A stretch of DNA of 64,000 nucleotides from an uncultured Acidimicrobiia bacterium (GTDB taxonomy: Bacteria > Actinomycetota > Acidimicrobiia > Spongiisociales > UBA5794): contig OY970200.1 of assembly GCA_963708235.1 (NCBI GenBank), forward strand, positions 395,146-459,145, written 5' to 3'. The notes below the pieces were generated by a model that saw nothing but the letters and a program-made list of their open reading frames with translations, searched no databases and was not told the origin of the DNA. Shown here piece after piece: positions 28,681 to 63,922 of this stretch. The stretch's first letter is position 1, and every line of letters begins with the position of its first letter. Both the position numbers and the translations under genes were made by a program.

Positions 28681-28820
28681 CAACGCCGGCAGGTGCCGCA
28701 CGCGACAGGTCGGCCTTCAGGGACAACAAGCTTGCGCCCCGCCCCACCTCCTCCCAGAACCTCGGAGGCACCCCGCCCCCCGGGGCGGGGAGGGCCGAAG
28801 AGCGAACGCACGTAGGCAGA

Positions 28821-29111: not shown

Positions 29112-29460
29112 CCCCCCGGGGTGCGTCGGAATACCTCCGGATCGGCAATCTGGGCGCTCCGAAACCCTTGTGCCCCAACGGCCCGAAATCGGCGGACGGA
29201 GTAGATCGACAGACCCCCTGGGGCGGGGGAGGGCCGAAGAGCGAACGCACGTACAGGGAGGCGAATAGCCTCCTCCCAGAACCCCGGAGGCACTCCGCCC
29301 CCCGGGGTGCGTCGGAATACCTCCGGATCGGCAATCTGGGCGCTCCGAAACCCCTTGTGCCCCAACGGCCCGAAATCGGCGGACGGAGTAGATCGACAGA
29401 CCCCCCGGGGCGGGGAGGGCCGAAGAGCGAACGCACGTACAGGGAGGCGAATAGCCTCCT
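29112..29460. repeat. Tandem duplication, ~186-bp unit x ~1.9, near-identical, immediately downstream of the IS110 fragment
   Basis: Unit begins CCCCCCGGGGTGCGTCGGAATACCTCCGGATCGGCAATCTGGGCGCTCCGAAACC at 29112 and again at 29298. A partial related copy at ~28746..28830. Confidence 0.7.
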
Positions 29461-29552
29461 TCCTGGGCGAGGGGAGACCCGATGCCAGGCAGGAGAACCC
29501 TTGCTGGCCCTCCTTTGGGGGCACTCTCGTGCGTGTCAGGCTCAGTAAGCCA

Positions 29553-29655
29553 GGTCCCCTTTCTGGCCCTCCCCGCCCTGGGGGGCGGGGTGGCTGCGGA
29601 CGCTTTGCGGACGCAGACGGGGCGGGGCGCGGCGTCGATGTCCCTGCGCTTGCAG
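29553..29655. repeat. Dispersed repeat X, copy A (GC hairpin + GGGGTGGCTGCGGACGCTTTGCGGACGCAGACGGGGCGG...)
   Basis: ~85% identical over ~100 bp to 40232..40345. An associated 35-bp Y segment (CAGGTCGGCCTTCAGGGACAACAAGCTTGCGCCCCGCCCC) at 28706..28746 matches 40395..40435. Confidence 0.55.
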
Positions 29656-29764
29656 TGTCACCACAACTGGCTCGCCAGACTGGCCCCTCCCTGCCCCGAG
29701 TGAGGGGCAGGGAGGGGCGGCAGGTACGAGATCGCCCGCACTGAACGGTGCGGGAGATCTTGGG

Positions 29765-31542
29765 TCAGCGTCTCCGGACGGACTCGTCGTCGACGACGGC
29801 GGCGGAGCCGCCTCCGCGGCGCACCGGTTCGGCGGCAGCCTCGAACCGACCGTTGCCGAGCATCTCGATCCCGGTCATGGCGCCGAGCTCGCCGGTGGAG
29901 GTCACGCTGTGGCCGAGCGCCTGCAGCGCCGGACCGAAGGCGGTGATCCACGCCGCTTCACCCTGGATGGCAGCCGTGTTGCGCTGGCTGCTGCGTGGAG
30001 CGGCCACGGCATCACCCAGCGTCATGCCACCGTCGATGCGGTTCATCAGCACCGCGATCACCGAGGTGATGATGGTGGCTCCTCCCGGGGTGCCGACGGC
30101 CAGCCAGGGCTCGCCGTCGTCGAGCACGATGGTGGGGCTCATCGAGCTGCGGGGGCGCTTGCCCGGCGCCGGCAGGTTCGGACCGTTGCCGGTGGCGTCG
30201 AAGTCGGTCAGCTCGTTGTTGAGCAGGAAGCCCCATCCCGGGACCGTGATCCCGGATCCGCCGGTTGCCTCGATGGTGAGCGTGTACGACACCACGTTGC
30301 CCCACCGGTCGGCCGTCGTCAGGTGGGTGGTCGACCCGCCGAGCGCCTCCACCGCACCTGCGGCGGGGACACACGCCGGATTGCCCCCGTCATAGGGACA
30401 TGGGTTCCCGGGCGCCGTCGGCTTCGCCATCGCCGTGGTCGCACTGATCAGGGCGGCGCGCACGGCGGCGAACGCCTGCGAGAGCAGACCGGTGATCGGG
30501 ACGTAGACGAACCCGGGCCGGTTGTCGCCGATGTAGGCGCCGCGGTCGGCGTAGGCCAGGGCGGTGGCCTCGGACAGGTAGTGCCAGCGGTTGGCCGGGG
30601 TCATGGCCGGGAGGTCGAACTCCTCCATGATGTTGAGCGACTCCCCGACGGTGATCCCGCCCGACGAGGGCGGGCCCATCCCGTAGATGTCGTACCCGCG
30701 GTAGGTCTGGTGGGTCGGTGCCGGTTCGAGCACCTCGTAGGCGGCGAGGTCGTCGAGGGTCATGTAGCCGGGGATGTACGGGGTGGCGCCGGGTGCGGTC
30801 TCGGCGCCCTGGACGGTGGCGATGAGGTCTTCGGCGAGCGGTCCCTCGAACAGACCGGCGTTGCCCCTCAACCCAAGATAGCGGTAGGTGTTCGCAAGAT
30901 CGGGATTGCGCACCACCGAACCCACAGCCGGTGCGTTGTTGTCGACGAGGAACGTGGCCGCCGTCGCCGGGAACCGGCGGAACAGCGCCAGGTTGCCCGC
31001 CGTCTGGCTGGCATACGTCGAGTCGACGACAAATCCGTTCTCGGCGATCTGCATCCCGGGTCGCAGCGCCTGGCGCAGGGTGATCGTCCCGTGGTCCTCG
31101 AGCGCCTTCACCCAGGTGGCGAGGGTTCCGGGGACGCCGATGGCGTGGCCGCTGCTGCGCCTCTGGTTTGCCGGGATCGGCAGGAAGACATCGCGGTCGT
31201 AGCGGGGATCGAGCGGGGCTGCCTCGCGACCGTCGAGGGTGACCACCTCATCCTCGTCGGCGAGGTAGATGACCATGAAGCCACCGCCCCCGATGCCGGC
31301 GGAATACGGTTCGGTGACGCCCAAGACGGCGGCCGTGGCGACCGCGGCGTCGATGGCGTTGCCGCCCTGTCTCGCACGCGGATCCCGGCCTCGGTTGCCA
31401 GCGGATCGACGCTGGACACCGCACCTCCGCCCCCGATGGCGACGGGCTTTCGCGGCAGGTCTTGCGGTGATGCCGCCACCGGAGTGGCGGCGGTGAATGC
31501 CATCATGGCGACAGTGAATAGCGCGACAAGTGTTCGGCGCAT
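29765..31542 (-). pseudogene. ggt: Gamma-glutamyltranspeptidase with a 1-nt frameshift (deletion) after codon ~55
   Basis: N-terminal signal peptide plus EAGIRV in one frame (31542 to ~31385). The canonical GGT sequence RQGGNAIDAAVATAAVLGVTEP..TTHLTTADRWGNVVS continues in the -1 frame. Observed GTGCGAGACAGGGC versus expected GTGCTGAGACAGGGC (V-L-R-Q-G). Confidence 0.7.
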
Positions 31543-33721: not shown

Positions 33722-36112
33722 ATGGGGATCGGTGAGGTTCGAGAGATCCGTATTCACGGGGTGTCGGGAACCCCCGCCCGCTCGATCCTGCGCACCGAAC
33801 CGGTATCGCGAGACCTCGGCGGGGGCTACGAACCGGCGGACCGCATCGAGATCCTCGCCCGACCGACCGTCGACCCTCAGGTGCTGGGCAAGCCTCTGGA
33901 GACGATGGCCTACCGGTGGGGACGGCTGACCGCAGGCAGTCTGTTGCAGGCGTTCTGGATCCTCCTGCTCCCCTACACCCTGATCAATGCCGCAGGGTGG
34001 ATGCTTCCCAAGTTGAACCAGAGCTGGTCCCGCACGCTCACCGCACTGGTGCGGCTGGCCGGCCTCGCCGTCACCGCCACCTTCGTGCTGCTCGCCGCCA
34101 ACGTTTCGATGGACCTCATGGCCTTCAAATGCCATCAGGCGGAGGCGCAGTGCGTGTCGTGGCTGGGCTGGCCGGACCTGTTCCGCATCAGGCTCGTGAT
34201 CGGTGCGCTGGTGCCGGTGGCCGTGGTGGGCTTGATCTACTGGGTGATCGCCAGGGATCCGAAAACGACGAGAACCCTCGATGCGATGGAAGGTGTCGAC
34301 GCCGATCCTGCACCGGTGGCGCCCGATGACCCGGCTCAGATGCTCACCCTCACCGATCCGGAGCTGTGGGCGCGTCATGCCATCGAGAAACATCTCGGGC
34401 TGCTCCACATGGCGGTGGGGGTTGCTGCGGTTGCTGCGGTGTTGGCGCTGGCCAAGGGTGTCTTCGCCCAGAGCACGACGCCGGAGTCGGTGTTCAGCCC
34501 GTGGGGCTTCATCGGTCTGGCGGTGGCGCCCCTTCTGGTTGGCGGTACCGGTATCGCTTCGGTGTTCAAGAACCACAAGTGGCGTTTCGGGGTGCTGGTG
34601 CGGATCTCGTTGGGGGTCGCCGTCGCCGGGTTCGTGGCGGTGGCGCTGTCGGTGGTGTTCGACGGGTCGCTGGACGATGCGGCCGGCGCATTCGTCGCCA
34701 CCCAGGGTCGGGCCCAGCTCCCCGGACTCCAGCAGGTGACCATCGTTGTGGCCGGTGCGCTCGGTGTGATCGGGGTGCTTCTCTACGTCTTCAGTGTGCG
34801 GAGCGGGAACGCCTCGGATGCCATCGGACCGGCGGCGATGCTGGTGCTGGCCGGGCTGATCAGCTCGGCGTTCGGTTCCGGGGTGATCCTCATCACCGAA
34901 TCGGCATTGGTTACCGGGGAGACGGATGGCACCGGGTTCCCAGGGATGGATTGGATCGCCGTCGGCTTCCTCGTCGTCCTGCTGGCGATCCTGGCGATGG
35001 CGAGCTTCATGGTGATGTGGTTCGCCTCCCGTGAATCCGACACGTTGCACGGCAGGCTGTTCACCGGGCTCAGCGAGGCCGCCCGTCGGGTCCGGACCGT
35101 GCTTCTCGTGGTCAGCCTGGTCGGACTGCTGGGAGGGATGTGGTTTCTCTTTGTGGTGCTGAGGGCTGGTTGGAACGAACCGATCGCTTCGCTGACCGGT
35201 CGACAGGAGTACACGGGGGCCCGGATCCTGGCTGCGTCCCTCGCCGTCCTCTCGGCGATCTTCATCTTCTGGTTCGTGCGGCAATTCGTACGTGGGTTGG
35301 CACGTGATGTCTTTGCGAGACCGTGGATGTGGTTCGTGGTGCCGGTGGCGGCAGTGATCGGTGTTGCGGTCCTCGTCTCGCTCATTGCCCGAGGGTTCGC
35401 CGTCCTCGGCGTGTCGCTGGAGTTCAACGGGCTCAGCGAGATCGCCACCTCGCTGGCGGTCCTTCTGCCGACCGGTCTCATCATCGGGCGGATGGTCACC
35501 GGGATCAGAAAGCCGGACTCGCAGCGGGCCGTCGGCGTGCTGTGGGACCTGGGGAGCTTCTGGCCACGCTGGTACCACCCGTTCTCGGCGCCGTACTACA
35601 CGCCGGTGGCCGTCCCCGATCTGCAGTCGCTGGTCGCCACCTCGCTCCGAAGCGGTACCGCCGACCCTGATCAGGGTGCCCGGTGTCTGGTGCTGGCGGC
35701 GCACAGCCAGGGCTCGATCATCGCCATGGCGGCCCTGCTGTCGCTGCAGACCTCCGCCTCGGCCGTGACTCCCGAGGAGATGCGACGGCTGGCGCTCCTC
35801 ACCTACGGCAGCCCCATCACCAAGCTCTACGCCACCATGTTCCCGGCGCACTTCAACGCCGATACGGTCGCCGCCCTTCGCGGCGAGCTCACCGACGCCA
35901 CGGCGGACACCCCGGTGGTGCGGTGGCGCAACCTGTTCCGGGTCACCGACCCCATCGGCGGGGCGGTGGAACCGGTCGGCGTGGCGGACCCGGTCGACCG
36001 CGGACCGCTTTCCGATCCGGACCGGGGTGGTCACTCCGGATACGAGGGGGAGCCGATCTATCGCCAGACGCTCGAGGAACTGGTGGAGATCGTCGTCGCC
36101 GGGTCGCCCTGA
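33722..36112 (+). CDS. Polytopic membrane protein with a C-terminal alpha/beta-hydrolase-like domain (AHSQGS nucleophile elbow)
   Basis: 796 aa, more than 10 predicted TM segments, then ..CLVLAAHSQGSIIAMAALLS... GGGGAGG SD before ATG 33722. Confidence 0.5.
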   Translation: MGIGEVREIRIHGVSGTPARSILRTEPVSRDLGGGYEPADRIEILARPTVDPQVLGKPLETMAYRWGRLTAGSLLQAFWILLLPYTLINAAGWMLPKLNQSWSRTLTALVRLAGLAVTATFVLLAANVSMDLMAFKCHQAEAQCVSWLGWPDLFRIRLVIGALVPVAVVGLIYWVIARDPKTTRTLDAMEGVDADPAPVAPDDPAQMLTLTDPELWARHAIEKHLGLLHMAVGVAAVAAVLALAKGVFAQSTTPESVFSPWGFIGLAVAPLLVGGTGIASVFKNHKWRFGVLVRISLGVAVAGFVAVALSVVFDGSLDDAAGAFVATQGRAQLPGLQQVTIVVAGALGVIGVLLYVFSVRSGNASDAIGPAAMLVLAGLISSAFGSGVILITESALVTGETDGTGFPGMDWIAVGFLVVLLAILAMASFMVMWFASRESDTLHGRLFTGLSEAARRVRTVLLVVSLVGLLGGMWFLFVVLRAGWNEPIASLTGRQEYTGARILAASLAVLSAIFIFWFVRQFVRGLARDVFARPWMWFVVPVAAVIGVAVLVSLIARGFAVLGVSLEFNGLSEIATSLAVLLPTGLIIGRMVTGIRKPDSQRAVGVLWDLGSFWPRWYHPFSAPYYTPVAVPDLQSLVATSLRSGTADPDQGARCLVLAAHSQGSIIAMAALLSLQTSASAVTPEEMRRLALLTYGSPITKLYATMFPAHFNADTVAALRGELTDATADTPVVRWRNLFRVTDPIGGAVEPVGVADPVDRGPLSDPDRGGHSGYEGEPIYRQTLEELVEIVVAGSP

Positions 36113-36130: not shown

Positions 36131-37873
36131 TCAGGCGGGGTCGGCCGCATCGGTATGGCGACGCCACAGCCCGGCATAGAGACCGTCGGCGGCGAGGAGC
36201 TCCTCGTGAGTGCCCTGCGCCACCACCTGTCCCCGGTCGAAGACCACGATCAGGTCGGCCCGGGTGACGGCCTCGAGCCGGTGGGCGACGAACAGCACGG
36301 TGTGGCGGGTGGCCACCACGGCAAGGGTCGCCAACACGGCCCGCTCGGACTCGGGGTCGAGCTCGGAGGTGGCCTCGTCGAGGATCAGGATGGCCCCCGG
36401 TCGCAGCAGCGCACGGGCGATGGCGAGCCGCTGACGTTGGCCGCCGCTCATGGTGTCCCCGAGTTCCCCGACATGGGTTTCGAGGTTCCGATCGAGCCCG
36501 CGCACCCAGTCGGCGAGCGCCACCCGCTCCAGCACCGCCCACAGGCGACGCTCGGTGGCGCCCGGGTCGGCGAGCCTGAGGTTGTCGGCGATGGTCCCGT
36601 GGAACAACTCGGGTTGCTGGGGGACGACGGCGACGTGGGAGCGCAGGGCCGAGGTGGGGATGGTGCGGAGATCGGCGCCCCCGATCGTGACCTCACCTGA
36701 CTGGGGCAATCGGAAACGCAACACCACGTCGACCAGGGTCGACTTTCCCGAACCCGACGGCCCCACCAGGGCGATCAGCCCACGCTCGGGTAGATCGAGC
36801 GTGACGTGATCGAGGGCGGGCGCCGCTTCCGGGGAGTGTCGCACGGTGACGGCACGAAGGCTCACCGCTCCACCCCGCGGCGTCGGGCCACCACTTCCCG
36901 GTTCGGGGATGGGCGGTGTCCGGTCGGCCAGCTCGAAGATCCGTCGACCGGCGGCGAGCGACTGTTCCAGATCGGCGGCGATCTCCTCGACGGCGCGGGC
37001 GGGGACCGCCACCACCCAGGCGGCGACGAGCGCCATGGCCAGCCCGTCGAGGGAAAGGGCAGCGGACTCCATCTGACCCGCACCCACCACGGCGACGGCG
37101 ACGACGGCGCCTGCAGCGACCAGATCGACGAGACCGGTGCGGAATGCGGCGATACGGGCAAGCTGGCTGCGCAGTGTGGCGACGGGTTCCTCGACCCGGT
37201 CGAGCCGGGCGACGACACGGTCGGCGGCGTCGAAGGCAACGATCTCCCGGATCCCCTGCCCGGCGTCGGTGAGGGTGGCGGCAGCCGCTCCGGATGCAAC
37301 TCGTAGCTGCGGGGCGAGTTCGCTGACCCGCCGGCGCCGCAGCCAAGGCACCGCGACCACGAGTGCCAGGAACGGCACCAGGGTCCCCGCCAGTGCCCAG
37401 TTGGTGACGAGACCCAGTCCGATCACGGTGAGGGTGGGAACGATGACCGCCCCGGCGAGGGGGGCGATGGTGTGGGCGAAGAAGGGCTCGATCCGGTCGA
37501 CGTCCCCGATGACCCGGCTGACCAGGTCGCCGGATCGGTCGTCCTCGAGCCCGGTCGGCGCCAGCGGTTCCAACGCCCGGTACGTGTCCGCCCGCAGCGT
37601 CGAGAGCAGCTGGAAGGCGACGGCGTGCCCGGTGAACTGCTCCAGATAGCGGAACAGACCCTTGATCAGGGCGAGACCGGTGAGCACCAGCACCAGCGAC
37701 AACGGCTCCGGTCCGCTCCCCATCCCGATACGCACCACCGACCCGGCGGCGATCACGGGGATGGCCACCCCGAGACCCTGGTTGACGATCCGACACAGGG
37801 TCGACCCCACGACCAGTCCCCGCATCGGCCGGAGCATGGCGAGAAGCCGGCGTCGGACCTGGGCCGGGGTCAT
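36131..37873 (-). CDS. ABC exporter, fused permease-ATPase (CydC-like thiol reductant exporter subunit)
   Basis: 6-TM domain plus NBD (GPSGSGKST, LSGGQRQRLAIARAL, ILILDEATS). Confidence 0.7.
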   Translation of the reverse strand: MTPAQVRRRLLAMLRPMRGLVVGSTLCRIVNQGLGVAIPVIAAGSVVRIGMGSGPEPLSLVLVLTGLALIKGLFRYLEQFTGHAVAFQLLSTLRADTYRALEPLAPTGLEDDRSGDLVSRVIGDVDRIEPFFAHTIAPLAGAVIVPTLTVIGLGLVTNWALAGTLVPFLALVVAVPWLRRRRVSELAPQLRVASGAAAATLTDAGQGIREIVAFDAADRVVARLDRVEEPVATLRSQLARIAAFRTGLVDLVAAGAVVAVAVVGAGQMESAALSLDGLAMALVAAWVVAVPARAVEEIAADLEQSLAAGRRIFELADRTPPIPEPGSGGPTPRGGAVSLRAVTVRHSPEAAPALDHVTLDLPERGLIALVGPSGSGKSTLVDVVLRFRLPQSGEVTIGGADLRTIPTSALRSHVAVVPQQPELFHGTIADNLRLADPGATERRLWAVLERVALADWVRGLDRNLETHVGELGDTMSGGQRQRLAIARALLRPGAILILDEATSELDPESERAVLATLAVVATRHTVLFVAHRLEAVTRADLIVVFDRGQVVAQGTHEELLAADGLYAGLWRRHTDAADPA

Positions 37874-39735
37874 GTGGTCTCCTCGGAGCCGTCATCACCG
37901 GTCACCGGGTCCTCGGGGGCGAAATGGAGCTGTTCCGGCAGTTCGTCGTCACGGTCCGGATCGATCTCGGCGGCGGGTTCAGAGACCGGTGCCGTCGGGG
38001 GCTCGATCGGTGGCCAGCGAGTTGCCGTGGGATCGAGATCGTCCTGATGGTCGGGAGCTGCGGCCGGTTGGTGGAGCAGCGTCGCCGCATCAGCCCCGGC
38101 GCCGGTGTCGACGATCCGACCCTGGTCGAGCCGGAGGAACCGGTCCGAGCCGGCAATGGTGGAGAGCCGGTGGGCGATGATCAGCACGGTGCGACCAGAC
38201 GTCAGTCGGGAGACGGCGGTCTTGATCCGAGCCTCGGTCTCGAGGTCGACATTGGAGGTCGGTTCGTCGAGCACCACGATCGGAGCGTCGACCAACAGGG
38301 CTCGGGCGATGGCCAACCGCTGCGCCTCGCCGCCGCTCAACGCCACCCCGCGCTCGCCGAGCTCGGTGTCGAGACCACCTCGGGATCGCATCAGATCGGC
38401 GAGTTCGGCGTCCTCGAGAGCCGACCAGAGTTCGGCCTCGGAAGCCCCGGGGTCGGCGAGACGAAGGTTGTCGGCAACGCTACCGTCGAACAGGTACGGC
38501 CGCTGTGGGACGAGCGCCACCCGACCGTTGACGTGGACCGAGCCGCTGCGGGGACGGTGCAGACCGGCGATGATCGAGGCCACCGTGGTCTTCCCCGAGC
38601 CGGATGGTCCGACGAGGGCGATGCGCTCGCCGGGTTCGATCCGCAGCGAAACCCCACGCAGGATGTCCGGACCCTCCCCGTAGGCGAATCTCACCGAGTC
38701 GAGTGCGACCAGACCGTCGGCGGCGCCGGTCCCGAGGTCACCACGGGTCGGCCGGGCGGCATCGGGGGCGGTGGCGAACAGCTTGCGGAGCTGGGTCGCC
38801 GCGGCGCGACCGATGGCTCCGACATAGAAGAATCGACCGATCTGCGAAAGCGGCTCGATCAGCATCACGCCGAGCAACACCAGCGTCACCGCCTCGCCGA
38901 TGGTGACGGCGTTGTTGGTCAGCCGCCACGCCGCCATCCCCGATGCCGCCACGACGGTGCCGATGGTGAACAGCGAATCGACGGCGAACAGGGCGAGCTG
39001 GTTGACCCGCAGCAGCCGCATCGTTTCGACCCGGAGCCGTTCCGACTCCCCGGCGATGGCATCGCCGTATGCCCGGGCGCGGTCCATGGATTTGAGCGCC
39101 CGCAGCCCCTGGACCCCGTCGAGGAACTGGGCGGCGAGGGTGTCGGCGGTCTGCCGGTATCGGGTGGTGACCGATGCGAACCGACCTTCCAGCCCGCGCA
39201 GCAGACCTGGCATGACCGGCAGGACGAGCACCAACACCACGGCGGTGGGGATGTCGATGGTCGCCACGACCATCGCCAGTAGCAGCGGGGTCGCCATCCC
39301 GCCGATGAGCTGGGGAAGGAACCGTCCGGCGTAGTCGCCCACGGCGTTGACCCCCTCGGTCGCCTGGGTGACGATGGCGCCGGTCCTCCGGTCGGCATCG
39401 GTGGGCCCGATCCGGACCATGGCATCGAGGGTGCGTCGCCTCAGGTCCCGTTCGACGGTGGAGGCGGTGGCCGATGCGAGCAGCGGGATGGCGGGAGCGA
39501 GCAGGGTCCGAACCCCCAGGAAGACGATCAGCCAGGTGATGGCCGGCCCCGATGGTCGCTGCGTCGAGAGATCATCGACGAGCCGGCCGAGGGCGACCAC
39601 CGCTCCCGCCGACATGAGGGCGCGACCCAGCCCCACCAGCACGGTCGCTCGGATGGTGCGGCGTGCGGCCACCACGATCGAAGGCGGTTTCTTCGGTTCC
39701 GGGAGGATGTCGGGTGAGATGGGAGCGCTGGCCAT
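37870..39735 (-). CDS. ABC exporter, fused permease-ATPase (CydD-like partner) with an acidic C-terminal tail
   Basis: Start ATG 39735 (MASAPISPDIL). The track ORF continues upstream through the 26/27-bp tandem array (RGENDQKRA... translations), which is not coding. NBD motifs GPSGSGKTT, LSGGEAQRLAIARAL. Confidence 0.7.
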   Translation of the reverse strand: MASAPISPDILPEPKKPPSIVVAARRTIRATVLVGLGRALMSAGAVVALGRLVDDLSTQRPSGPAITWLIVFLGVRTLLAPAIPLLASATASTVERDLRRRTLDAMVRIGPTDADRRTGAIVTQATEGVNAVGDYAGRFLPQLIGGMATPLLLAMVVATIDIPTAVVLVLVLPVMPGLLRGLEGRFASVTTRYRQTADTLAAQFLDGVQGLRALKSMDRARAYGDAIAGESERLRVETMRLLRVNQLALFAVDSLFTIGTVVAASGMAAWRLTNNAVTIGEAVTLVLLGVMLIEPLSQIGRFFYVGAIGRAAATQLRKLFATAPDAARPTRGDLGTGAADGLVALDSVRFAYGEGPDILRGVSLRIEPGERIALVGPSGSGKTTVASIIAGLHRPRSGSVHVNGRVALVPQRPYLFDGSVADNLRLADPGASEAELWSALEDAELADLMRSRGGLDTELGERGVALSGGEAQRLAIARALLVDAPIVVLDEPTSNVDLETEARIKTAVSRLTSGRTVLIIAHRLSTIAGSDRFLRLDQGRIVDTGAGADAATLLHQPAAAPDHQDDLDPTATRWPPIEPPTAPVSEPAAEIDPDRDDELPEQLHFAPEDPVTGDDGSEETT

Positions 39736-39770
39736 GTGTCGGACCCCGAGAGTACCCCGCCTGGGAAACT

Positions 39771-40250
39771 GCCCGGTAGGCCCCCTTCTGGTCGTTCTCT
39801 CCTCGGGCCCGCTTCTGGTCGTTCTCTCCTCGGCCCCCTTCTGGTCGTTCTCTCCTCGGGCCCGCTTCTGGTCGTTCTCTCCTCGGGCCCCCTTCTGGTC
39901 GTTCTCTCCTCGGGCCCGCTTCTGGTCGTTCTCTCCTCGGGCCCGCTTCTGGTCGTTCTCTCCTCGGGCCCCTTCTGGTCGTTCTCTCCTCGGGCCCGCT
40001 TCTGGTCGTTCTCTCCTCGGGCCCGCTTCTGGTCGTTCTCTCCTCGGGCCCCTTCTGGTCGTTCTCTCCTCGGGCCCGCTTCTGGTCGTTCTCTCCTCGG
40101 GCCCGCTTCTGGTCGTTCTCTCCTCGGGCCCCTTCTGGTCGTTCTCTCCTCGGGCCCGCTTCTGGTCGTTCTCTCCTCGGGCCCGCTTCTGGTCGTTCTC
40201 TCCTCGGGCCCGCTTCTGGTCGTTCTCTCCTCGGGCCCCTTCTGGCCCTC
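39771..40250. repeat. Tandem array, ~18 copies of a 27-bp unit GGGCCCGCTTCTGGTCGTTCTCTCCTC with 26-bp variants
   Basis: Read directly. Mixed 26- and 27-bp units break any reading frame. No unique spacers. The last unit grades into the dispersed repeat X hairpin. Confidence 0.85.
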
Positions 40251-40440
40251 CCCTCCTCGGGAGGAGGGGTGGCTGCGGACGCTTGCGGACGCAGACGGGG
40301 CGGAGCGCGACCTCGATGTCCGCCTCGCCCGCAGTGTCTCCGACGGGCACGAACGGCGCCACGGACCCCCCCGAACGCGCAGGCCCGTCCGCGGCAGGTC
40401 AACCCTGAGGGACAACGAGCTCGCGCCCCTCCCCACCAAC
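40232..40440. repeat. Dispersed repeat X (copy B, 40232..40345) followed by Y (40395..40435)
   Basis: Begins with hairpin CCCCTCCTCGGGAGGAGGGG, then GGTGGCTGCGGACGCTTGCGGACGCAGACGGGGCGG as in copy A. The Y segment GAGGGACAACGAGCTCGCGCCCCTCCCCA matches 28715..28745. Confidence 0.55.
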
Positions 40441-40570
40441 TGGAGAAGCGTGCGGGGAGGCCAAGCGAACAACGCCGCCAGCCGCGCTGCGGTGTGTTTG
40501 TATGTCGGCTCAGCGGTGCCCTGAGACGTCAGCCGAGGTGGCGGTCGGGGCGATCTCGAAGGAGGCGCAG

Positions 40571-41422
40571 GTGCCACGCCCGTTTCAACAGGTCAACGTT
40601 TTCGGAGCCGGCAAGGTCGATGGCAATCCCTTGGCGGTGGTGGTCGACTCGGAGGGGTTGAGCACCGACGAGATGCTGGCATTCACGCGCTGGATGAATC
40701 TCTCCGAGACCGCCTTTCTGCTTCCCCCGACGCAGCCGGGCGCCGACTATCGGGTCCGGATCTTCACGTTGGTCGGCGAGCTGCCGTTCGCCGGACATCC
40801 CACCCTTGGTTCCTGCCATGTGTGGCTGTCGACCCTGGGTCGGGATCATGCGGGCGGCACGGTCGTCCAGGAATGTGGCGCAGGTCTGGTGCCGATCCGT
40901 CGCAGCGATCCCGGTCTGGCGTTTGCGGCACCGCCGCTGCTGCGCGAGGGACCCGTCGACCCCGGCTATCTCGACGGCGTGCTGGCGATCCTCGGGGTCA
41001 CCGCCGACGAGGTGGTCGACTCACAATGGGTGGACAACGGCCCGGGCTGGGTCGGAGTGCTTCTCCGGGACGCCGAGGCGGTGCTTGCGGTGCAGCCCGA
41101 TGTCGGCCGGCACCAGGGTGACGACCGCTTCGACATCGGCATCGTCGGCGCCTACCCGCCGGGTTCCGAATGCGCCTTCGAGGTCCGTGCGCTGTTCACC
41201 GAGGACGGGGGAGGTATGCGCGAAGACCCGGTGACCGGCAGCCTCAATGCCTCGCTGGGGCAGTGGCTGTTTGGCGCCGGGTACGCCACCGCACCCTATG
41301 TCGCCGCTCAGGGGACGCGACTGGGCAGATCGGGCCGGGCCCACATCGATCAGGACACCGAAGGACAGGTGTGGGTCGGCGGCGCCACCGTCACGCTCAT
41401 CTCGGGCGAGGTCGATCTCTGA
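40571..41422 (+). CDS. PhzF-family (phenazine biosynthesis-like) isomerase
   Basis: GTG start after GAAGGAGG. FQQVNVFG..GNPLAVV N-terminus and overall PhzF/DAP-epimerase-like fold pattern. Confidence 0.7.
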   Translation: MPRPFQQVNVFGAGKVDGNPLAVVVDSEGLSTDEMLAFTRWMNLSETAFLLPPTQPGADYRVRIFTLVGELPFAGHPTLGSCHVWLSTLGRDHAGGTVVQECGAGLVPIRRSDPGLAFAAPPLLREGPVDPGYLDGVLAILGVTADEVVDSQWVDNGPGWVGVLLRDAEAVLAVQPDVGRHQGDDRFDIGIVGAYPPGSECAFEVRALFTEDGGGMREDPVTGSLNASLGQWLFGAGYATAPYVAAQGTRLGRSGRAHIDQDTEGQVWVGGATVTLISGEVDL

Positions 41423-41438
41423 ATCCACCCCGACACCC

Positions 41439-41939
41439 CTAGCGGGTGACGGCGACCGAATCCTCGAACTCGACGGAGTTGACCTCATCGGTGTAGGCGA
41501 CGGTCGGCGCCGTGATCTCCACCCACTCGAAGATCGGGCGGGGGTTGTTCGCCGGGTCGTGGACGTCGGGGCTGGTCGTGGCAACCGCCGAGATCCGGGC
41601 GTTCGAGAGTTGGATGCTGAACCGGTGCCGGGTCTCACCCGAATCGGGGTTGGTGTCGAACAGCTTGATCGTGCCGTCGAGAACCTGGTTCATGACCAAT
41701 GCCCGGTACAGCAACGGTGTGGTGCGGTCGGTCGGCTTGCGGATACGAACCGGGTCGATGGTGCGTCGCCCGGCGCGCGCCGACCCCGCCTCCTTTGCGG
41801 CCTGCCGCGACCCGAAATGCAGCTCATAGCCCTCGATGTGATCTGCGGACACATCGACCCCACCCATCGTTGAATTGGAGACGTCGCCGGTCAGGGCGCT
41901 CCCGTTGATCGTGAACTCGCAATAGAACAGCTGAGCCAT
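41439..41939 (-). CDS. Hcp-family (T6SS inner-tube-like) protein, orphan
   Basis: ATG 41939 with GAGGGAGG SD. MAQLFYCEFTING..HIEGYELHFGSRQ..IDPVRIRKPTDRTTPLLYRALVMNQVLDGTIKLF aligns with Hcp1 (IDVLAWSWGMSQ..LSFTKYIDKSTPNLMMACSSGKHY..). GC ~63%, below the local background. Confidence 0.6.
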   Translation of the reverse strand: MAQLFYCEFTINGSALTGDVSNSTMGGVDVSADHIEGYELHFGSRQAAKEAGSARAGRRTIDPVRIRKPTDRTTPLLYRALVMNQVLDGTIKLFDTNPDSGETRHRFSIQLSNARISAVATTSPDVHDPANNPRPIFEWVEITAPTVAYTDEVNSVEFEDSVAVTR

Positions 41940-42138
41940 CGTCGTTCCTCCCTCGTCGAATCCCACATCGAGGATGCTCCCGGTGCGAAACCTACCCGAG
42001 GGAGGTATCCGCTGTGGATCGCCGGGAAGGCCGTCTTCCGCCGTCTGCGCACCGGGCGCGCTCCTGGTGGACCGAACTCATCATGTAGAGCGAAGAAACA
42101 TCTTGTACTCTCGGTAGACATCAATTACAATCGAACAC

Positions 42139-43413
42139 ATGTTCGCTTCAGGTTTCTTCGACAACGAAGACCGGTTGATGTCACGGTCGATGCGGTTGGC
42201 CTATGCCGATGTCGACGATGCGCGATCCGACCTGGTTCGCATCGAGGGCCAGATCGCCGAACTCCGTGCCGAACAGATCCGGATCCTGGCGTGGCTCGAC
42301 GCCCGCAAGGTGGCTCGGGTCGAAAAGGCGCGGTCGATGGAAGAATGGACGGCGGCGACCCTCGACGTGACCCCGGCGACTGCCCGTGATCTCGTGTCCG
42401 TCGCCCGCAGCGAAGACGAGGTCCCTGCGGTGCGGGACGATCTCAGCAGCGGGGCCATCACGTTCGACCGGGCCGTGGCGACCGGTGCGCTGGTGGCGGC
42501 GGGCGGAACCGAACACGACGTCGCCGAGAGTCGCGATCGCGATCTCGTCGGCGTTCGCCGCCGTACCGCCCAGTTGAAGCGGGTCACCCGTGTCGACGAG
42601 GAAGAGCTGATGCGGCAGCGTCACCTGTCGATCACTCCCACCCTGGGCAACACCGCCTGGAAGATCAGCGGAATCGCTCCCGGATATGAAGGTCACGTCA
42701 TTGCCAAGGCCCTCGAGCAGGTAGCGGAGGGATTCCCGTCCAACCGGGCGGGCGGAAGCGAGCAGAGCCGTTCACAGCGGATGCTCGATGCGCTCACCGC
42801 ACTCTCCCAGGATGCCCTCGACGGACTGAACGCGGTCGATCTCGTCGATCCCGTCGACGACGATGATGACGACGACGGTCATCCGATACCGTCGACCGAT
42901 CCGGGTACCCCGATCCGGTTGGTCGGGTCATCGGTGACGGTGTTCCTCGATGGGGACCGGGCCGCACAGAGTGCCGGGGAGCTCGGTGGGGAGATCGCCG
43001 CCGGCCCGCGCATCGGCCCTGACACCTTGGACCGCATTCTGTGCGGTGGAACGATCGGTCTGGTGGTGCTGGACCGGAACGGCAAACCGGTGGTTTCGAC
43101 CCCCAGGTCCCGCCGCATCCCACCGGCGATCCGGGATTTCGTACTTCGTCGCGACGGCGGATGTGTGATGGAAGGGTGTCGAAGTCGGTATCGGCTCGAA
43201 CCTCACCACATCCTGCGCTACGCCGATGGTGGCACGCACCATGTCGACAATCTGGTGACGCTGTGCTGGCATCACCATCACGTCGTGGTTCACCGCTCCG
43301 GTGAGCGAATCGATCCCGACAGTCCGCCGCACCGTCGAAGATTCCTCCGCCCCGGCGAACGACGCGCCCTCATCGAGGCCGAACGGATCGCCATGGCCCG
43401 GGACATCGAGTGA
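42139..43413 (+). CDS. DUF222 + HNH endonuclease protein (REP13E12-like family)
   Basis: C-terminal HNH: CRSRYRLEPHHILRYADGGTHHVDNLVTLCWHHHHVVVH. N-terminal domain as in the mycobacterial 13E12 repeat proteins. AT-rich promoter region upstream. Confidence 0.7.
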   Translation: MFASGFFDNEDRLMSRSMRLAYADVDDARSDLVRIEGQIAELRAEQIRILAWLDARKVARVEKARSMEEWTAATLDVTPATARDLVSVARSEDEVPAVRDDLSSGAITFDRAVATGALVAAGGTEHDVAESRDRDLVGVRRRTAQLKRVTRVDEEELMRQRHLSITPTLGNTAWKISGIAPGYEGHVIAKALEQVAEGFPSNRAGGSEQSRSQRMLDALTALSQDALDGLNAVDLVDPVDDDDDDDGHPIPSTDPGTPIRLVGSSVTVFLDGDRAAQSAGELGGEIAAGPRIGPDTLDRILCGGTIGLVVLDRNGKPVVSTPRSRRIPPAIRDFVLRRDGGCVMEGCRSRYRLEPHHILRYADGGTHHVDNLVTLCWHHHHVVVHRSGERIDPDSPPHRRRFLRPGERRALIEAERIAMARDIE

Positions 43414-43464: not shown

Positions 43465-44853
43465 TCAGATCAGGCTCTTGGCGGTGCTGTACTTCTTGGT
43501 CTCCATGGCCGACGAGAAGGTGTCCCACTTGACCTTGGTTTTCCGATCGAAGGTGTCGATCAACTCGGTGTACTTCCCAGCGAAGTACGCCTGCTGGACG
43601 GTGGCGTTTCCGACCCGCGTGGCGAGTTTTTCCATGACCTCGTGGTCGTTCGGATAGTTGCCGCGGATGATCCCGAGGGGTTCGGTGACCTTGCGGGTGA
43701 ACAACTCGGTCAACCCCTCGTCGATGGTGGACACCCCGGCCAGCTTGTACTGGCTGATCAGCGAGTCGCGCAGCGTGGGGTCGGCGTATTTGTGCATCCC
43801 CTCGTGGAGCACGGTGCCGGCGTTTCCCCAGTTCTTGTTGACCCAGATGTGGCGTTTGGGCAGGTTGACATCGACAAAAGCGTTGCAGACGCTGGAGTCG
43901 GTGTAGCCGAACGGTCCCCATTGCCGGAAGAAGGCGTCGTCCCAGTCCTTGCCCCCGACCACCGACACCTCCCCTTCGACCCTGCGGCCCTTGGTCACGG
44001 CATCCAACCCCAGGTCCTGCATGTAGCCCTGGATGTGCTGGTCCGCCACGGGTGCCTTCATGTGCTCGGTCCAGCCCGGGGTGGCTTCGCTCAGGTCCTT
44101 GTCCGGCTGGTTGTAGACCCGCAGGGCGGGGAGCAGCGCCAGATAGACGTCCTTCTTCAGCGTCAGGCGGGCCGTGTTCATCAACGTGGTGTCCTGGGAG
44201 ACCGTATCCCGTTCGTCCTGGGTGGCCTTCTCGATAAAGGGCCGGACATCGTCGATGGTCGTTGCGGTGGCCCCGTAGTCCTCGATGAACCGGGTGATCC
44301 TCGCCTTGAACGACATCCCCTGGCGGGTGTAGACCTTCATCATCGAGGCGACGTCGGCCCCGGCGGGATCGAGCCGGAAGGTCCCGGTGCGGATGTAGGC
44401 GTCGAGACCGTCGACCTTGTCGACCATCTTGTACCAGACGGTGTCTTTGGGGTTCTCCCGGTACTCCGACGGCTCCGGCGCCTCGTCGGTCTCCAGACGT
44501 GACGTGAACGGCTTGTTGTCGTGGATGGCGACATGTGAGTCCGGCGCAAACTCCTTGCCGGACCTCCCGTGCACCAGCGAGTCCCGGTCGGTTGGCCGGA
44601 TCCGCGGCTTGGTCTTGGTGGTGATCACCGCATCGACCGGTTTGCGCTGGACGGCGACATGCGACGAGACCGCCCGATTGCCGGCGGCGTGCAGCCCGGG
44701 AACCGATGGCGGCAGCCGATCCACGCCACCGCGCCGTACGGCCGAGCGACCGGTCCCGGTGGCGCTCTGGTCGGATCGTTGCGTCGACGTGACCCGACGC
44801 GACAGCGACATTCTCGAACGGTGCGACATCCTCGAACCTCCGGAAGGAGACAC
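43465..44853 (-). CDS. Hypothetical HExxH zinc-metallopeptidase-like protein with a disordered Ser/Arg-rich N-terminus (toxin/effector candidate)
   Basis: GGAGG SD before ATG 44853. VLHEGMHKY...IDEGLTE (HExxH + downstream Glu). Lys-rich, GC ~55% versus ~70% background. Confidence 0.5.
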   Translation of the reverse strand: MSPSGGSRMSHRSRMSLSRRVTSTQRSDQSATGTGRSAVRRGGVDRLPPSVPGLHAAGNRAVSSHVAVQRKPVDAVITTKTKPRIRPTDRDSLVHGRSGKEFAPDSHVAIHDNKPFTSRLETDEAPEPSEYRENPKDTVWYKMVDKVDGLDAYIRTGTFRLDPAGADVASMMKVYTRQGMSFKARITRFIEDYGATATTIDDVRPFIEKATQDERDTVSQDTTLMNTARLTLKKDVYLALLPALRVYNQPDKDLSEATPGWTEHMKAPVADQHIQGYMQDLGLDAVTKGRRVEGEVSVVGGKDWDDAFFRQWGPFGYTDSSVCNAFVDVNLPKRHIWVNKNWGNAGTVLHEGMHKYADPTLRDSLISQYKLAGVSTIDEGLTELFTRKVTEPLGIIRGNYPNDHEVMEKLATRVGNATVQQAYFAGKYTELIDTFDRKTKVKWDTFSSAMETKKYSTAKSLI

Positions 44854-61237: not shown

Positions 61238-62139
61238 GGAACCGGTTTCCGAACCGGCCCCGCGGTGACGGAGTCGGGTGCGACCAGTTCGAGACCGGTC
61301 AGTGTGGCCAGTGCGGTGCGGATGTCATCCCACGACCTCGGCTCGGGGGCGTCGGCACCGCTCACCACAACCCCCGAAGCGGTTGCTTCGGTGGCGAGAT
61401 GGCGCATCGTCGGCGAGTCCGGGGCGTCGATCGTCAACTCACCGGCGGTGCGGAGTGCCGCTGCCAGCCGGTGGGGGTGGAGCAGCAACGGCTGGCCGAT
61501 CACCGCATCGCCGGTCAGCGGTTCGACCGAGACGATCCGTGCGGCGGTCGGTGACGGTCCCGGTGTGGGGGCGAACAGGGTGGTGTCGATGCCGTGGGGG
61601 AGGTGCTGCGCCGACGACCACTCGCAACCGGGAGCGGCGACGATGTGGTCGCAGGAGGCGGCGATGCGCTCCAGGTCGGAGGTCGGGGCCACCACATCCC
61701 AACGGAACACCGTGACCACGCCGGCGGTGCCCAGCTCGTCGACGATCCGCATCACCAGTTCCGTCACCGCCCACCGGCCCCCACCCATTCCCGCCCACAC
61801 CGAACCGGCGTCTCCGGCGGAGGCGTCGATCACCAGCACGCGGGCCCCGCCAGGGAGTCCCGACACCCGGTTGGGGTGGAGTGCGGTGATCCAGCTCGGA
61901 ACCCGCACCGCATGGAAACCCGAAGTGATGGTCACCACCGGGGTGGTCGGTGGGTCCTGGCCGGAGAGTTGCGGGACCGGCAGGTCGTCCCACGAGGGAA
62001 CGGACCCGGTGGGTCGGTCGTCGACCGGGTCCGGTGGGGGTGGCTCGACGGGTCCGGGGGCCGTCTCCCCGATGGTCTCCGGCTCGGACCGGCGCCGTCG
62101 CAGCAGCCGATCGATGCGGGACCGCTCACGGCGTGACAT
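61234..62139 (-). CDS. Hypothetical protein in the glycosyltransferase cluster
   Basis: Start at internal Met MSRRERSRIDRL (ATG 62139) to avoid a 200-bp overlap. Pro-rich N-terminal region. Confidence 0.3.
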   Translation of the reverse strand: MSRRERSRIDRLLRRRRSEPETIGETAPGPVEPPPPDPVDDRPTGSVPSWDDLPVPQLSGQDPPTTPVVTITSGFHAVRVPSWITALHPNRVSGLPGGARVLVIDASAGDAGSVWAGMGGGRWAVTELVMRIVDELGTAGVVTVFRWDVVAPTSDLERIAASCDHIVAAPGCEWSSAQHLPHGIDTTLFAPTPGPSPTAARIVSVEPLTGDAVIGQPLLLHPHRLAAALRTAGELTIDAPDSPTMRHLATEATASGVVVSGADAPEPRSWDDIRTALATLTGLELVAPDSVTAGPVRKPVP

Positions 62140-63922
62140 CGGCGACCTCGGAACGTTCGGGGTGGAATCCGCTCCAGGCATCGTCGGAACCGGCGAGGAA
62201 GACGGCGTCGTCGGCCTCCCAGGTGTGGCCGGCGGGGCGACGGACATAACAGAACTCCCATCGACTTCCGGCATACACGGCGGCGTCGGTCCGGCGTGCC
62301 GCACGCAGGAACCCGGTGTCGACATGACGGGGCCGGTGGGGGAACCCGACCCGGTCCCACACGTGGCGGGCGAAGACCAGTGTCGCTCCGTTCGGGGAGC
62401 CGTCGATCAGCATCTCCTCCTGACCGGGCCGGCGCAGCACGGTGCGGTCCCGGCCGGCCAGATAGGTGAACTGGGTGCCCTTGCCGACGATCTCGGCGCC
62501 CGAATAGGTCATGGCGTGGACGCTGTCCTCGAGGTGCGCCGGACCGTAGTGGTCGTCGTCGTCGATCTTGGCGAGGACTGGCGCCGACGTCGCCGCCGCC
62601 GCCAGATTGAGACATTCGCCGAGCGACCGGGAGCGGTCGAACTCGAGCACGGTGACCGGGATCTCGGCGCGGTCGATGGCATCGGTTATCGAGGCGTCGC
62701 GGCGAGCGCCGTGGATCCCGACCACCAGTTCGGTGAGCGGGTAGGTCTGGTGGAGAAACCCGGTGATGGCGCCGGGGAGGTCCTCGGGGCGGTGCGATAC
62801 GAGCAGACCGGCGACCCTGGGGAGCGCTGCCGGCGCCGTGAGCCCCATCAGGTCGAGAACCTGGGCGGCCCGCACCCACGGCGCATGATGACGGTAGGCC
62901 CACCGACGCGCCGCCACCGAGTCGGCCGAAGCGTCACGACCCGCCGGAGGGGGTCCGATGGGGACACCCGAGGCGGCGAGCTCGATCATCCAGAGCGGCG
63001 GCCCGGTCGAATGCCCGTCGGCGCGATCCACCCGGATCGGCTGACCGCCGGCCAGCACCACGGTGGCGCCGTCCCGGTGGTCCTCGTCGGTAGCAGGTCC
63101 AGGGGTCCACGGACCGGAGGGTCGGTGGGTGGCGGGGTCGAAACAACCCGGGAGGAGGTGTCCGCCAGACGCTGCGGCGTTCGAGACGTCGGTGGTCGCC
63201 AGAACATCGGTCGGAGACATCAGTGCGGCGACCTCGCCGAGGTCGGCGTCGCCGGTCCACACCAGCAGCCGCTGCCGTCCCGGTTCGGCGGTCCACGATG
63301 CGAACCGGTCCCGGACCGTCCGGTCCAGGTGGTGAAACGTGGTCGGGTCGATGATCACCAGGTCGGCCTCGTCGAGATCGCCGGCGGTGGCGGCAGCCAG
63401 ATCGACCGTGTCGAACGATGACGCCGCGCGGCTGATCCCCGGGTCGTCCACCGCCACGACGGCACGGATCGAGGTGATGTCCGGACCCCCGTGGCGGGCG
63501 GAGACCGTCTGCGGCGCCGGGGTCGTCTCGGGCGGGGTCGTCTCGGGCGGGGTCGTCTCGGGCGGGGTCGTCTCAGACTGGGCGTCGGCGGTCACCGGGG
63601 TCGCAGATGCGGGCTTTCGGGGCGTCACCGGTGGGGGTGCGGGCGTGCCGGGCTTCCCGGATCGGAGGGCGGCGCGGACCTTGTCGACAAAAGTCCGTTG
63701 CGCCGCCTCGGCGGTGCGGGCTGCCTGCTCGGCCCGGATGCGTTCGATGCGTTCGCTGCGGCGTTCGGCGCGATCCCTCCACACCTCGATGCGCTCCAGG
63801 AGTTCCTCGATGCGGATCTCGGCACGGCGCCGTCGCACCCGCTCGTCGCGCAGTGCTTGTTCGAGTTGGGCCTGTTCCGGCGGCGTCGGTTCCGGCGGGA
63901 TCGGTCGGTCGGGATCGTCCAT
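62126..63922 (-). CDS. GT2 glycosyltransferase with N-terminal coiled-coil and a TPPE-repeat linker
   Basis: KIDDDDHYGP (DxD) in the C-terminal half. N-terminal ERVRRRRAEIRIEELLERIEVWRDRAERR coiled coil. 15-bp x4 tandem repeat at 63519..63578 encodes TPPETTPPETTPPETT. Confidence 0.5.
   Translation of the reverse strand: MDDPDRPIPPEPTPPEQAQLEQALRDERVRRRRAEIRIEELLERIEVWRDRAERRSERIERIRAEQAARTAEAAQRTFVDKVRAALRSGKPGTPAPPPVTPRKPASATPVTADAQSETTPPETTPPETTPPETTPAPQTVSARHGGPDITSIRAVVAVDDPGISRAASSFDTVDLAAATAGDLDEADLVIIDPTTFHHLDRTVRDRFASWTAEPGRQRLLVWTGDADLGEVAALMSPTDVLATTDVSNAAASGGHLLPGCFDPATHRPSGPWTPGPATDEDHRDGATVVLAGGQPIRVDRADGHSTGPPLWMIELAASGVPIGPPPAGRDASADSVAARRWAYRHHAPWVRAAQVLDLMGLTAPAALPRVAGLLVSHRPEDLPGAITGFLHQTYPLTELVVGIHGARRDASITDAIDRAEIPVTVLEFDRSRSLGECLNLAAAATSAPVLAKIDDDDHYGPAHLEDSVHAMTYSGAEIVGKGTQFTYLAGRDRTVLRRPGQEEMLIDGSPNGATLVFARHVWDRVGFPHRPRHVDTGFLRAARRTDAAVYAGSRWEFCYVRRPAGHTWEADDAVFLAGSDDAWSGFHPERSEVADVTP

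Follow-up and report, generated by a model that had tools for sequence, protein, structure and literature searches.

The window analysed here, by which the whole 64-kb stretch of DNA (G+C 68.5%) is meant, carries two genes for ABC exporter subunits and, divergent from them, a gene for a PhzF-family isomerase (Table 1). Both exporter subunits contain ABC_membrane and ABC_tran domains; their best NCBIfam models were CydD (TIGR02857) and CydC/MsbA, each below the respective equivalog cut-off. The CydC-like coding sequence overlaps the end of cydD, and the two genes thus form an operon. Compared with most homologues (540-560 aa; 85-88% query coverage), the CydD-like protein is longer by about 60 aa at its N-terminus; this extension is conserved in the closest relative and is under codon-level constraint there. 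The 835-bp intergenic region between cydD and phzF (39736-40570) holds a tandem array and, on its phzF side, one copy of a dispersed element, here termed X.

Table 1. Features of the exporter locus and copies of the X and Y elements in the window.
Feature	Position	Strand	Remarks
CydC-like ABC exporter subunit	36131..37873	-	580 aa
CydD-like ABC exporter subunit	37870..39735	-	621 aa; start ATG 39735
Conserved block upstream of cydD	39736..39783	-	48 bp, 6 differences from the relative (L001); array abuts distal edge
TACTCT, -10-like TANNNT hexamer	39749..39754	-	13 nt upstream of ATG; putative function
Tandem array	39779..40233	.	17 units, 26/27 bp, 455 bp
A-free stretch	39779..40261	+	483 nt; base composition
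Element X, copy X2	40234..40341	+	5′ module, hairpin 1, hairpin 2, conserved tail
Degenerate Y-type copy	40407..40476 (about)	-	inverted; resembles 28718-28807 with internal deletion; sequence reading
PhzF-family isomerase gene	40571..41422	+	divergent; start GTG 40571, preceded by GAAGGAGG
Y-type copy	28696..28815	-	hairpin 2 = CCTCC/GGAGG
Y fragments	29215-29302 and 29401-29463	-	sister type of X
Element X, copy X1	29554..29662	+	same 5′ module CCCCTTTCTGGCCCTCCCC; no array

The array proper consists of 17 full units arranged head to tail, which were obtained by cutting the sequence at TTCTGG and measure, in order, 27, 26, 27, 27, 27, 27, 26, 27, 27, 26, 27, 27, 26, 27, 27, 27 and 26 bp. Tandem Repeats Finder reported 39779-40261 with a period of 27 (18.1 copies, 96% matches, score 882) and a second period of 80 (27+27+26; 6 copies, 97% matches); the "18th copy" (40240) belongs to the 5′ end of X2 and is not an array unit. 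Each unit is composed of TTCTGGTCGTTCTCTCCTCGG followed by GCCCGC or GCCCC (consensus GGCCCGC-TTCTGG-TCGTTCTC-TCCTCG), and the self-identity of the array reaches 0.85 at lag 80, compared with 0.82 at lag 27. With up to three mismatches allowed, the 26-nt unit occurred 17 times, as against 0 occurrences in 100 shuffles. The units are contiguous, the start-to-start spacing of 26/27 nt being equal to the unit length. The structure is that of a minisatellite or VNTR (a unit of 10-100 bp, head to tail, spacer-free and beyond chance), and CRISPR was rejected because the repeats have no spacers. An earlier note on this DNA had described a pure tandem minisatellite of about 18 copies at 39771-40250 and had dismissed both CRISPR and a protein repeat; the array and both dismissals stand, the coordinates were off by about 8-10 bp and the copy number is 17. 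A protein-coding repeat was rejected on four grounds: the mixture of 26- and 27-bp units breaks the reading frame, the higher period is 80, the gene-sense strand offers no start codon, and the array is absent from the orthologous locus of the relative.

A 20-nt core (TTCTGGTCGTTCTCTCCTCG) is invariant in 17/17 units. Variation is confined to the G/C junction, where GGCCCGC and GGCCCC occur together with one GGCCCCC and one GCCCCC. The variants follow each other in the order A B′ A C A A B A A B A A B A A A B, so that three consecutive A-A-B blocks form an 80-bp higher-order repeat. On sequence grounds, invariant cores with junction-only variation indicate recent expansion or homogenisation; the perfect homogeneity of the 17 units could also reflect selection.

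The base composition of the array limits the signals that it can hold. Within the A-free stretch listed in Table 1 the (-) strand correspondingly lacks T, and the second-longest A-free run in the window is 70 nt. The absence of A on the (+) strand makes a TANNNT -10 hexamer impossible in either direction, and promoter duplication was rejected for this reason. It also leaves no stop codon in any frame of either strand, which explains the long spurious ORFs that span the array. The cydD-sense (-) strand contains no ATG, GTG or TTG start and 17 GAGGAGA motifs. Every unit boundary is a palindrome, CGGGCCCG, and 16 GGGCCC sites are present. When the array was folded as single-stranded DNA, eight hairpins were predicted, each formed by two adjacent boundaries around a 19-20-nt loop and each looping out exactly one unit; the free energy was -75 kcal/mol, compared with -50 +/- 4 in shuffled sequences (z = -6.0), and 0/100 shuffles were equally stable.

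The parent of the array unit is the 5′ module of X2, GGCCCCTTCTGGCCCTCCCC, which can be written GGCCCC-TTCTGG-CCCTCCCC. In X2 it leads into hairpin 1 at 40250-40269 (CCCCTCCTC GGG AGGAGGGG; the arm pair is also given as CCCCTCCTC/GAGGAGGGG), hairpin 2 at 40273-40294 (CTGCG...CGCAG) and a conserved tail (GGGGCGGAGCGCG...CAGTGTCTCC). The 26-nt unit matches X2 40234-40259 at 22/26 positions, shares with X2 the arm sequence TCCTCGG, which is missing from X1 (GCCCTG there), and continues in unbroken phase into the 5′ end of X2. Register, X2-specific arm and similarity together identify the array as a local amplification of the X2 5′ module, in keeping with the earlier note, which had derived the unit from the 5′ end of repeat X. 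The four differences between unit and X2 lie at alternate positions of one octamer (TCGTTCTC in the unit, CCCTCCCC in X2), and every unit carries all four; this pattern is not accounted for by simple slippage. In the 64-kb window only X2, one of two X copies, has been amplified. An exact search with the 22-nt unit core gave 0 matches in 185,579 species genomes, JGI metagenome contigs and IMG/VR. The array is thus most likely young and lineage-specific, as judged from these searches, and fits a recent private expansion.

Units that differ only by 1-nt indels or substitutions in a G/C run are also what assembly errors would leave behind if the copy number and the 26/27 pattern had been mis-resolved, with indel errors in the GGGCCC(G)C tracts, and short reads cannot span a perfect array of 455 bp; the source contig is a single 3.74-Mb sequence. 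The 26-mers recur regularly, however, in A-A-B order with the period of 80 and its 97% matches, rather than at random, and the array is bordered by unique, orthologously conserved sequence at one end and, in register, by an intact element X at the other. A wholly or partly artefactual array is very unlikely on this evidence.

The two X copies belong with a sister type, Y, and the window contains three to four Y copies or fragments; one more is present in the relative (contig L001). In both hairpins of this family the arms differ between copies yet remain complementary; the hairpin-1 arms of X1, CCCCGCCC/GGGCGGGG, are compensatory relative to those of X2. A 47-nt Y core is 100% identical between the window (28734-28780) and L001 (352-398), whereas the orthologous flanking DNA at the cydD-phzF site is only 84-88% identical, which suggests either strong constraint or recent mobility of the core. 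Neither the array nor X gave any Rfam hit at gathering thresholds or at E<=1, and a tRNA search found none. A degenerate X/Y pattern returned 41 single matches, scattered across phyla, among 185,579 species genomes; BLAST found extended similarity in none of them, and they were rejected as family members and attributed to chance. From its sequence features X/Y is classed as a structured, REP-like, dispersed two-hairpin family that appears to be undescribed.

Several further features lie among the X and Y copies. The C-terminal remnant of an IS110-family transposase (Pfam PF02371; 28829-29113, +) is located between Y copies and is, at the nucleotide level, about 75% identical to IS110 genes of Rhodococcus plasmids. 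Directly after it comes a 186-bp tandem duplication (x1.9; 29112-29460, score 675), the only other high-scoring tandem duplication in the window besides the array. The unit boundary of this duplication falls in the CCCCCCGGGG loop of a Y hairpin 1, and about 92 bp, flanked by a 10-bp duplication, have apparently been inserted into that loop. A third palindrome resembling hairpin 1 (29676-29722, +; CTGGCCCCTCCCTGCCCC GAGT GAGGGGCAGGGAGGGGC) is without a hairpin 2 and adjoins the 3′ end of a convergent gamma-glutamyltranspeptidase gene (29765-31324, -); it may be a terminator or a solo REP of the X/Y family. The association of a two-hairpin family with an IS110 remnant is comparable in interest to the array itself.

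The intergenic region was compared with contig L001, which carries the 83%-identical CydD and is the only usable relative locus; L003/L049 is identical to it upstream of the gene. The CydD-like protein of the source forms a cluster with a single member on one contig, the collections searched yielded no second strain, and its relatives lie mostly in sequences annotated as Acidimicrobiia/Actinobacteria. The cydD loci further removed (L002, L004-L007; 66% identity) have a different gene context and are uninformative for the intergenic region. A metagenome search with a conserved 22-mer from upstream of cydD matched the known relative contig only. Both flanks of the region align with L001, at 84% on the cydD side (39506-39783) and at 88% on the phzF side (40489-40638); between them the relative has 270 bp, as against 705 bp in the window. 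The phzF gene has a conserved upstream block of its own (40489-40570, 82 bp), which lies 255 bp from the array. On the cydD side homology ends at GGCCC (39779-39783); beyond this point a GC-rich hairpin element follows in the relative, and the array follows in the window. The element in the relative (L001 330-440) is a sister two-hairpin (Y) element at the same position in the cydD-phzF interval and in the same orientation, with no array. In our reading of this alignment, L001 displays the pre-expansion state of the locus.

The same comparison bears on the possibility that the repeats are protein-binding iterons, that is, sites of a plasmid or ICE origin, of a partition centromere or of a transposon end. 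Many identical direct repeats, each with an 8-bp palindrome, would suit such a function. No rep, par or complete transposase gene is found nearby, where the genes are CydDC-like, PhzF-like, Hcp-like and DUF222-HNH; the flanks are syntenic with a relative that has no array; and the spacing of 26.7 bp is not helically phased. A search of a plasmid collection gave no match to the array region. For want of partner genes and because of the syntenic chromosomal flanks, an iteron or centromere array was rejected and is regarded as extremely improbable.

The position of the array relative to cydD was assessed from the start codon upwards. Over the first 93 nt after ATG 39735 the window and the relative differ at 2, 1 and 9 first, second and third codon positions, respectively, a pattern which shows that translation starts at or before this ATG and makes the start adopted in the earlier note credible. 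The array is separated from it by 43 nt, within the 36-45 bp given there. In the conserved block upstream of cydD the proximal 27 nt (39736-39762, -) are identical in the 83%-identity relative. They include TACTCT, the only TANNNT hexamer on either strand of the intergenic region, which lies downstream of the array. A 17-bp spacer would place the -35 element at 39772-39777 and the start of the array at about -37, one base upstream of this predicted element. This promoter assignment consists of one hexamer and its conservation with a single relative; a consensus sigma-70 promoter scan of the region returned no sigma-70-like site, and a terminator scan gave two terminator-like hits, within chance expectation. 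On the most economical reading of the sequence, this proximal promoter drives cydDC and the leader is very short. The 27-nt block also includes CGGGGT(A/C)C as a direct repeat with 11-bp spacing, which could be a regulator site.

An array that abuts a predicted -35 element occupies a place where upstream DNA can influence promoters, and an effect on cydDC transcription is conceivable on positional grounds. A stronger version holds that the array is a functional, phase-variable promoter-proximal repeat, in which gain or loss of units changes cydDC transcription and gives rise to subpopulations with differing thiol export or cytochrome bd assembly. The slippage-prone structure of the array and its location 43 nt from a supported start and next to the predicted -35 are in favour of this, as is a precedent in Mycobacterium tuberculosis (Mtb), where the copy number of promoter tandem repeats is variable within populations and affects expression (PMC12817950). 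Those repeats have units of 54-58 bp in 2-7 copies, lie 12-29 bp upstream of genes and duplicate promoter sequence (PMC12817950). The present array resembles them, and MIRU-VNTR loci, as an actinobacterial intergenic repeat a few tens of bp upstream of a gene start with a promoter of the short-leader or leaderless type. It differs in its 26/27-bp unit, its 17 copies and its position upstream of the conserved core block; moreover, its units carry no promoter sequence, since no TANNNT is possible over 483 nt, and their number cannot multiply promoters as in Mtb. A unit of 26/27 bp also cannot tune the spacing between -35 and -10, and the array lies outside the conserved 48-bp block, where the relative has an unrelated hairpin sequence. 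Phase variation of cydDC by this route is unlikely.

The earlier note had suggested that copy number might modulate promoter or UTR spacing in the manner of a contingency locus. This part is not supported: the array lies upstream of the predicted -35, at the edge of the conserved 48-bp block, hence not between promoter elements and most likely not in the UTR either, and the unrelated hairpin sequence at its position in the relative leaves no conserved upstream site whose spacing could be tuned. In contingency loci the repeat unit measures 1-8 nt, and the repeats lie within a coding frame or else overlap or separate the -35 and -10 elements. The array shares with contingency loci that it is a slippage-prone tandem repeat close to a gene start; its unit is 26/27 nt long, and it lies outside the coding sequence and upstream of the predicted -35. 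The anatomy of the locus, as read from sequence, argues against a built-in gene switch, and the effect of the array on cydDC expression is most likely small or nil.

A role at the RNA level would require that the array be transcribed, whether within a long leader of cydDC or as an RNA of its own; the U-free, purine-rich transcript, with its motifs exposed in loops and linkers, might then serve as a ribosome standby site or act in a sponge-like manner. The 17 GAGGAGA motifs are Shine-Dalgarno-like and contain GGA, no start codon accompanies them on the sense strand, and the predicted fold is a row of regular hairpins that present the motif in their 19-20-nt loops. Against such a transcript, the interval 39736-40570 contains no cydD-sense TANNNT upstream of the array, and no promoter-like site came out of the consensus scan; Rfam gave no match even at E<=1, and the array is absent from the closest relative. 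The motifs are most simply seen as passively inherited from an arm of X2 hairpin 1. Altogether, a function as RNA appears highly improbable.

The reading that we consider probable is that the array is a young, lineage-specific minisatellite, which grew when the 26-nt 5′ module of X2, a REP-like element, was amplified in tandem, and which has little or no effect on expression. The amplified module would consist of the 5′ arm of hairpin 1 together with the flank GGCCCC-TTCTGG, and the first duplication would have formed beside this stable GC hairpin. Slipped-strand mispairing or unequal recombination may have driven later growth, some of it in 80-bp blocks of three units. Neighbouring CGGGCCCG boundaries on one strand could pair and loop out one unit, and such loop-outs on the nascent or the template strand would lead to the gain or loss of whole units; the A-A-B blocks suggest that some events involved three units at once, by unequal recombination or by slippage on a larger scale. 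In this reading the array lies immediately upstream of, and not inside, the core promoter and short leader of the CydDC-like operon. From its structure, variation in array length (VNTR) is expected.

Both of the window's large tandem duplications, the 27-bp one (x17) and the 186-bp one (x1.9), have hairpin 1 as their anchor, and the location of the 186-bp boundary in a hairpin 1 of the family suggests that the hairpin itself may promote duplication. A more far-reaching proposal is that hairpin 1 of X/Y is an active amplification hotspot, at which replication stalling and template switching, or an IS110-type recombinase such as the one whose remnant lies among the copies, would render the array hypervariable and alter the output of the CydDC-like exporter. 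This full chain of events is quite unlikely.

Measured against known systems, the minisatellite interpretation finds its closest behavioural analogue, by comparison of organisation, in the pneumococcal BOX element. BOX elements have the structure boxA-boxB(n)-boxC, in which boxB is amplified in tandem with a locus-specific and strain-variable copy number; variation from strain to strain increases with the length of the boxB array, and the elements can affect adjacent genes (PMC3049150). In both cases one module of a small, dispersed, hairpin-forming intergenic repeat has been amplified in tandem, and X/Y is, like BOX, a multi-copy dispersed element built of stem-loop modules. The amplified module is internal in BOX, whereas in X2 it is the 5′ end with the 5′ hairpin arm; the unit is 26/27 bp as against about 45 bp for boxB, the sequences are unrelated and the phyla differ. 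Amplification affects 1/2 X copies in the window, and strain variability, which is known for BOX, is for the array an expectation.

The X/Y elements also resemble REP/BIME sequences: they are GC-rich imperfect palindromes of the 20-40-nt class, intergenic, present in both orientations and clustered, with an IS110 remnant embedded among them. REP families are defined by high genomic copy number and are often associated with a RAYT transposase. To our knowledge, a 17-fold amplification of a half-element has no counterpart among classical REPs. Insertion of IS110 elements into REP sequences is documented (10.1101/2025.01.17.633520; PMC8450116). The array is best placed with the intergenic minisatellites of bacteria, as one that originated from a dispersed palindromic element, and as such is of a known kind. 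If its length varies, it would supply a typing marker for a poorly studied actinobacterial lineage and a clean example of how a minisatellite originates at one end of a REP-like element while a relative still shows the ancestral state; it would matter more if copy number altered expression of the CydDC-like exporter.

Some observations were made on the remaining genes of the window. Beyond phzF, an ORF at 41439-41966 (-) is Hcp/TssD-like (Pfam T6SS_HCP, 43.2 bits; NCBIfam, 52.8 bits, under the cut-off of 58.9) and is adjoined by an ORF for a DUF222-HNH endonuclease (42139-43413, +). An Hcp-like gene is unusual in a genome of actinobacterial type. Two ORFs, 33722-36112 (+, 796 aa) and 43465-44853 (-, 462 aa), have coding-like GC3 and gave no Pfam or NCBIfam match. 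A perfect 15-bp tandem repeat (x3.8; 63518-63574) encodes PETTP four times within ORF 62126-63922 (-) and is an ordinary Pro/Thr-rich linker repeat.
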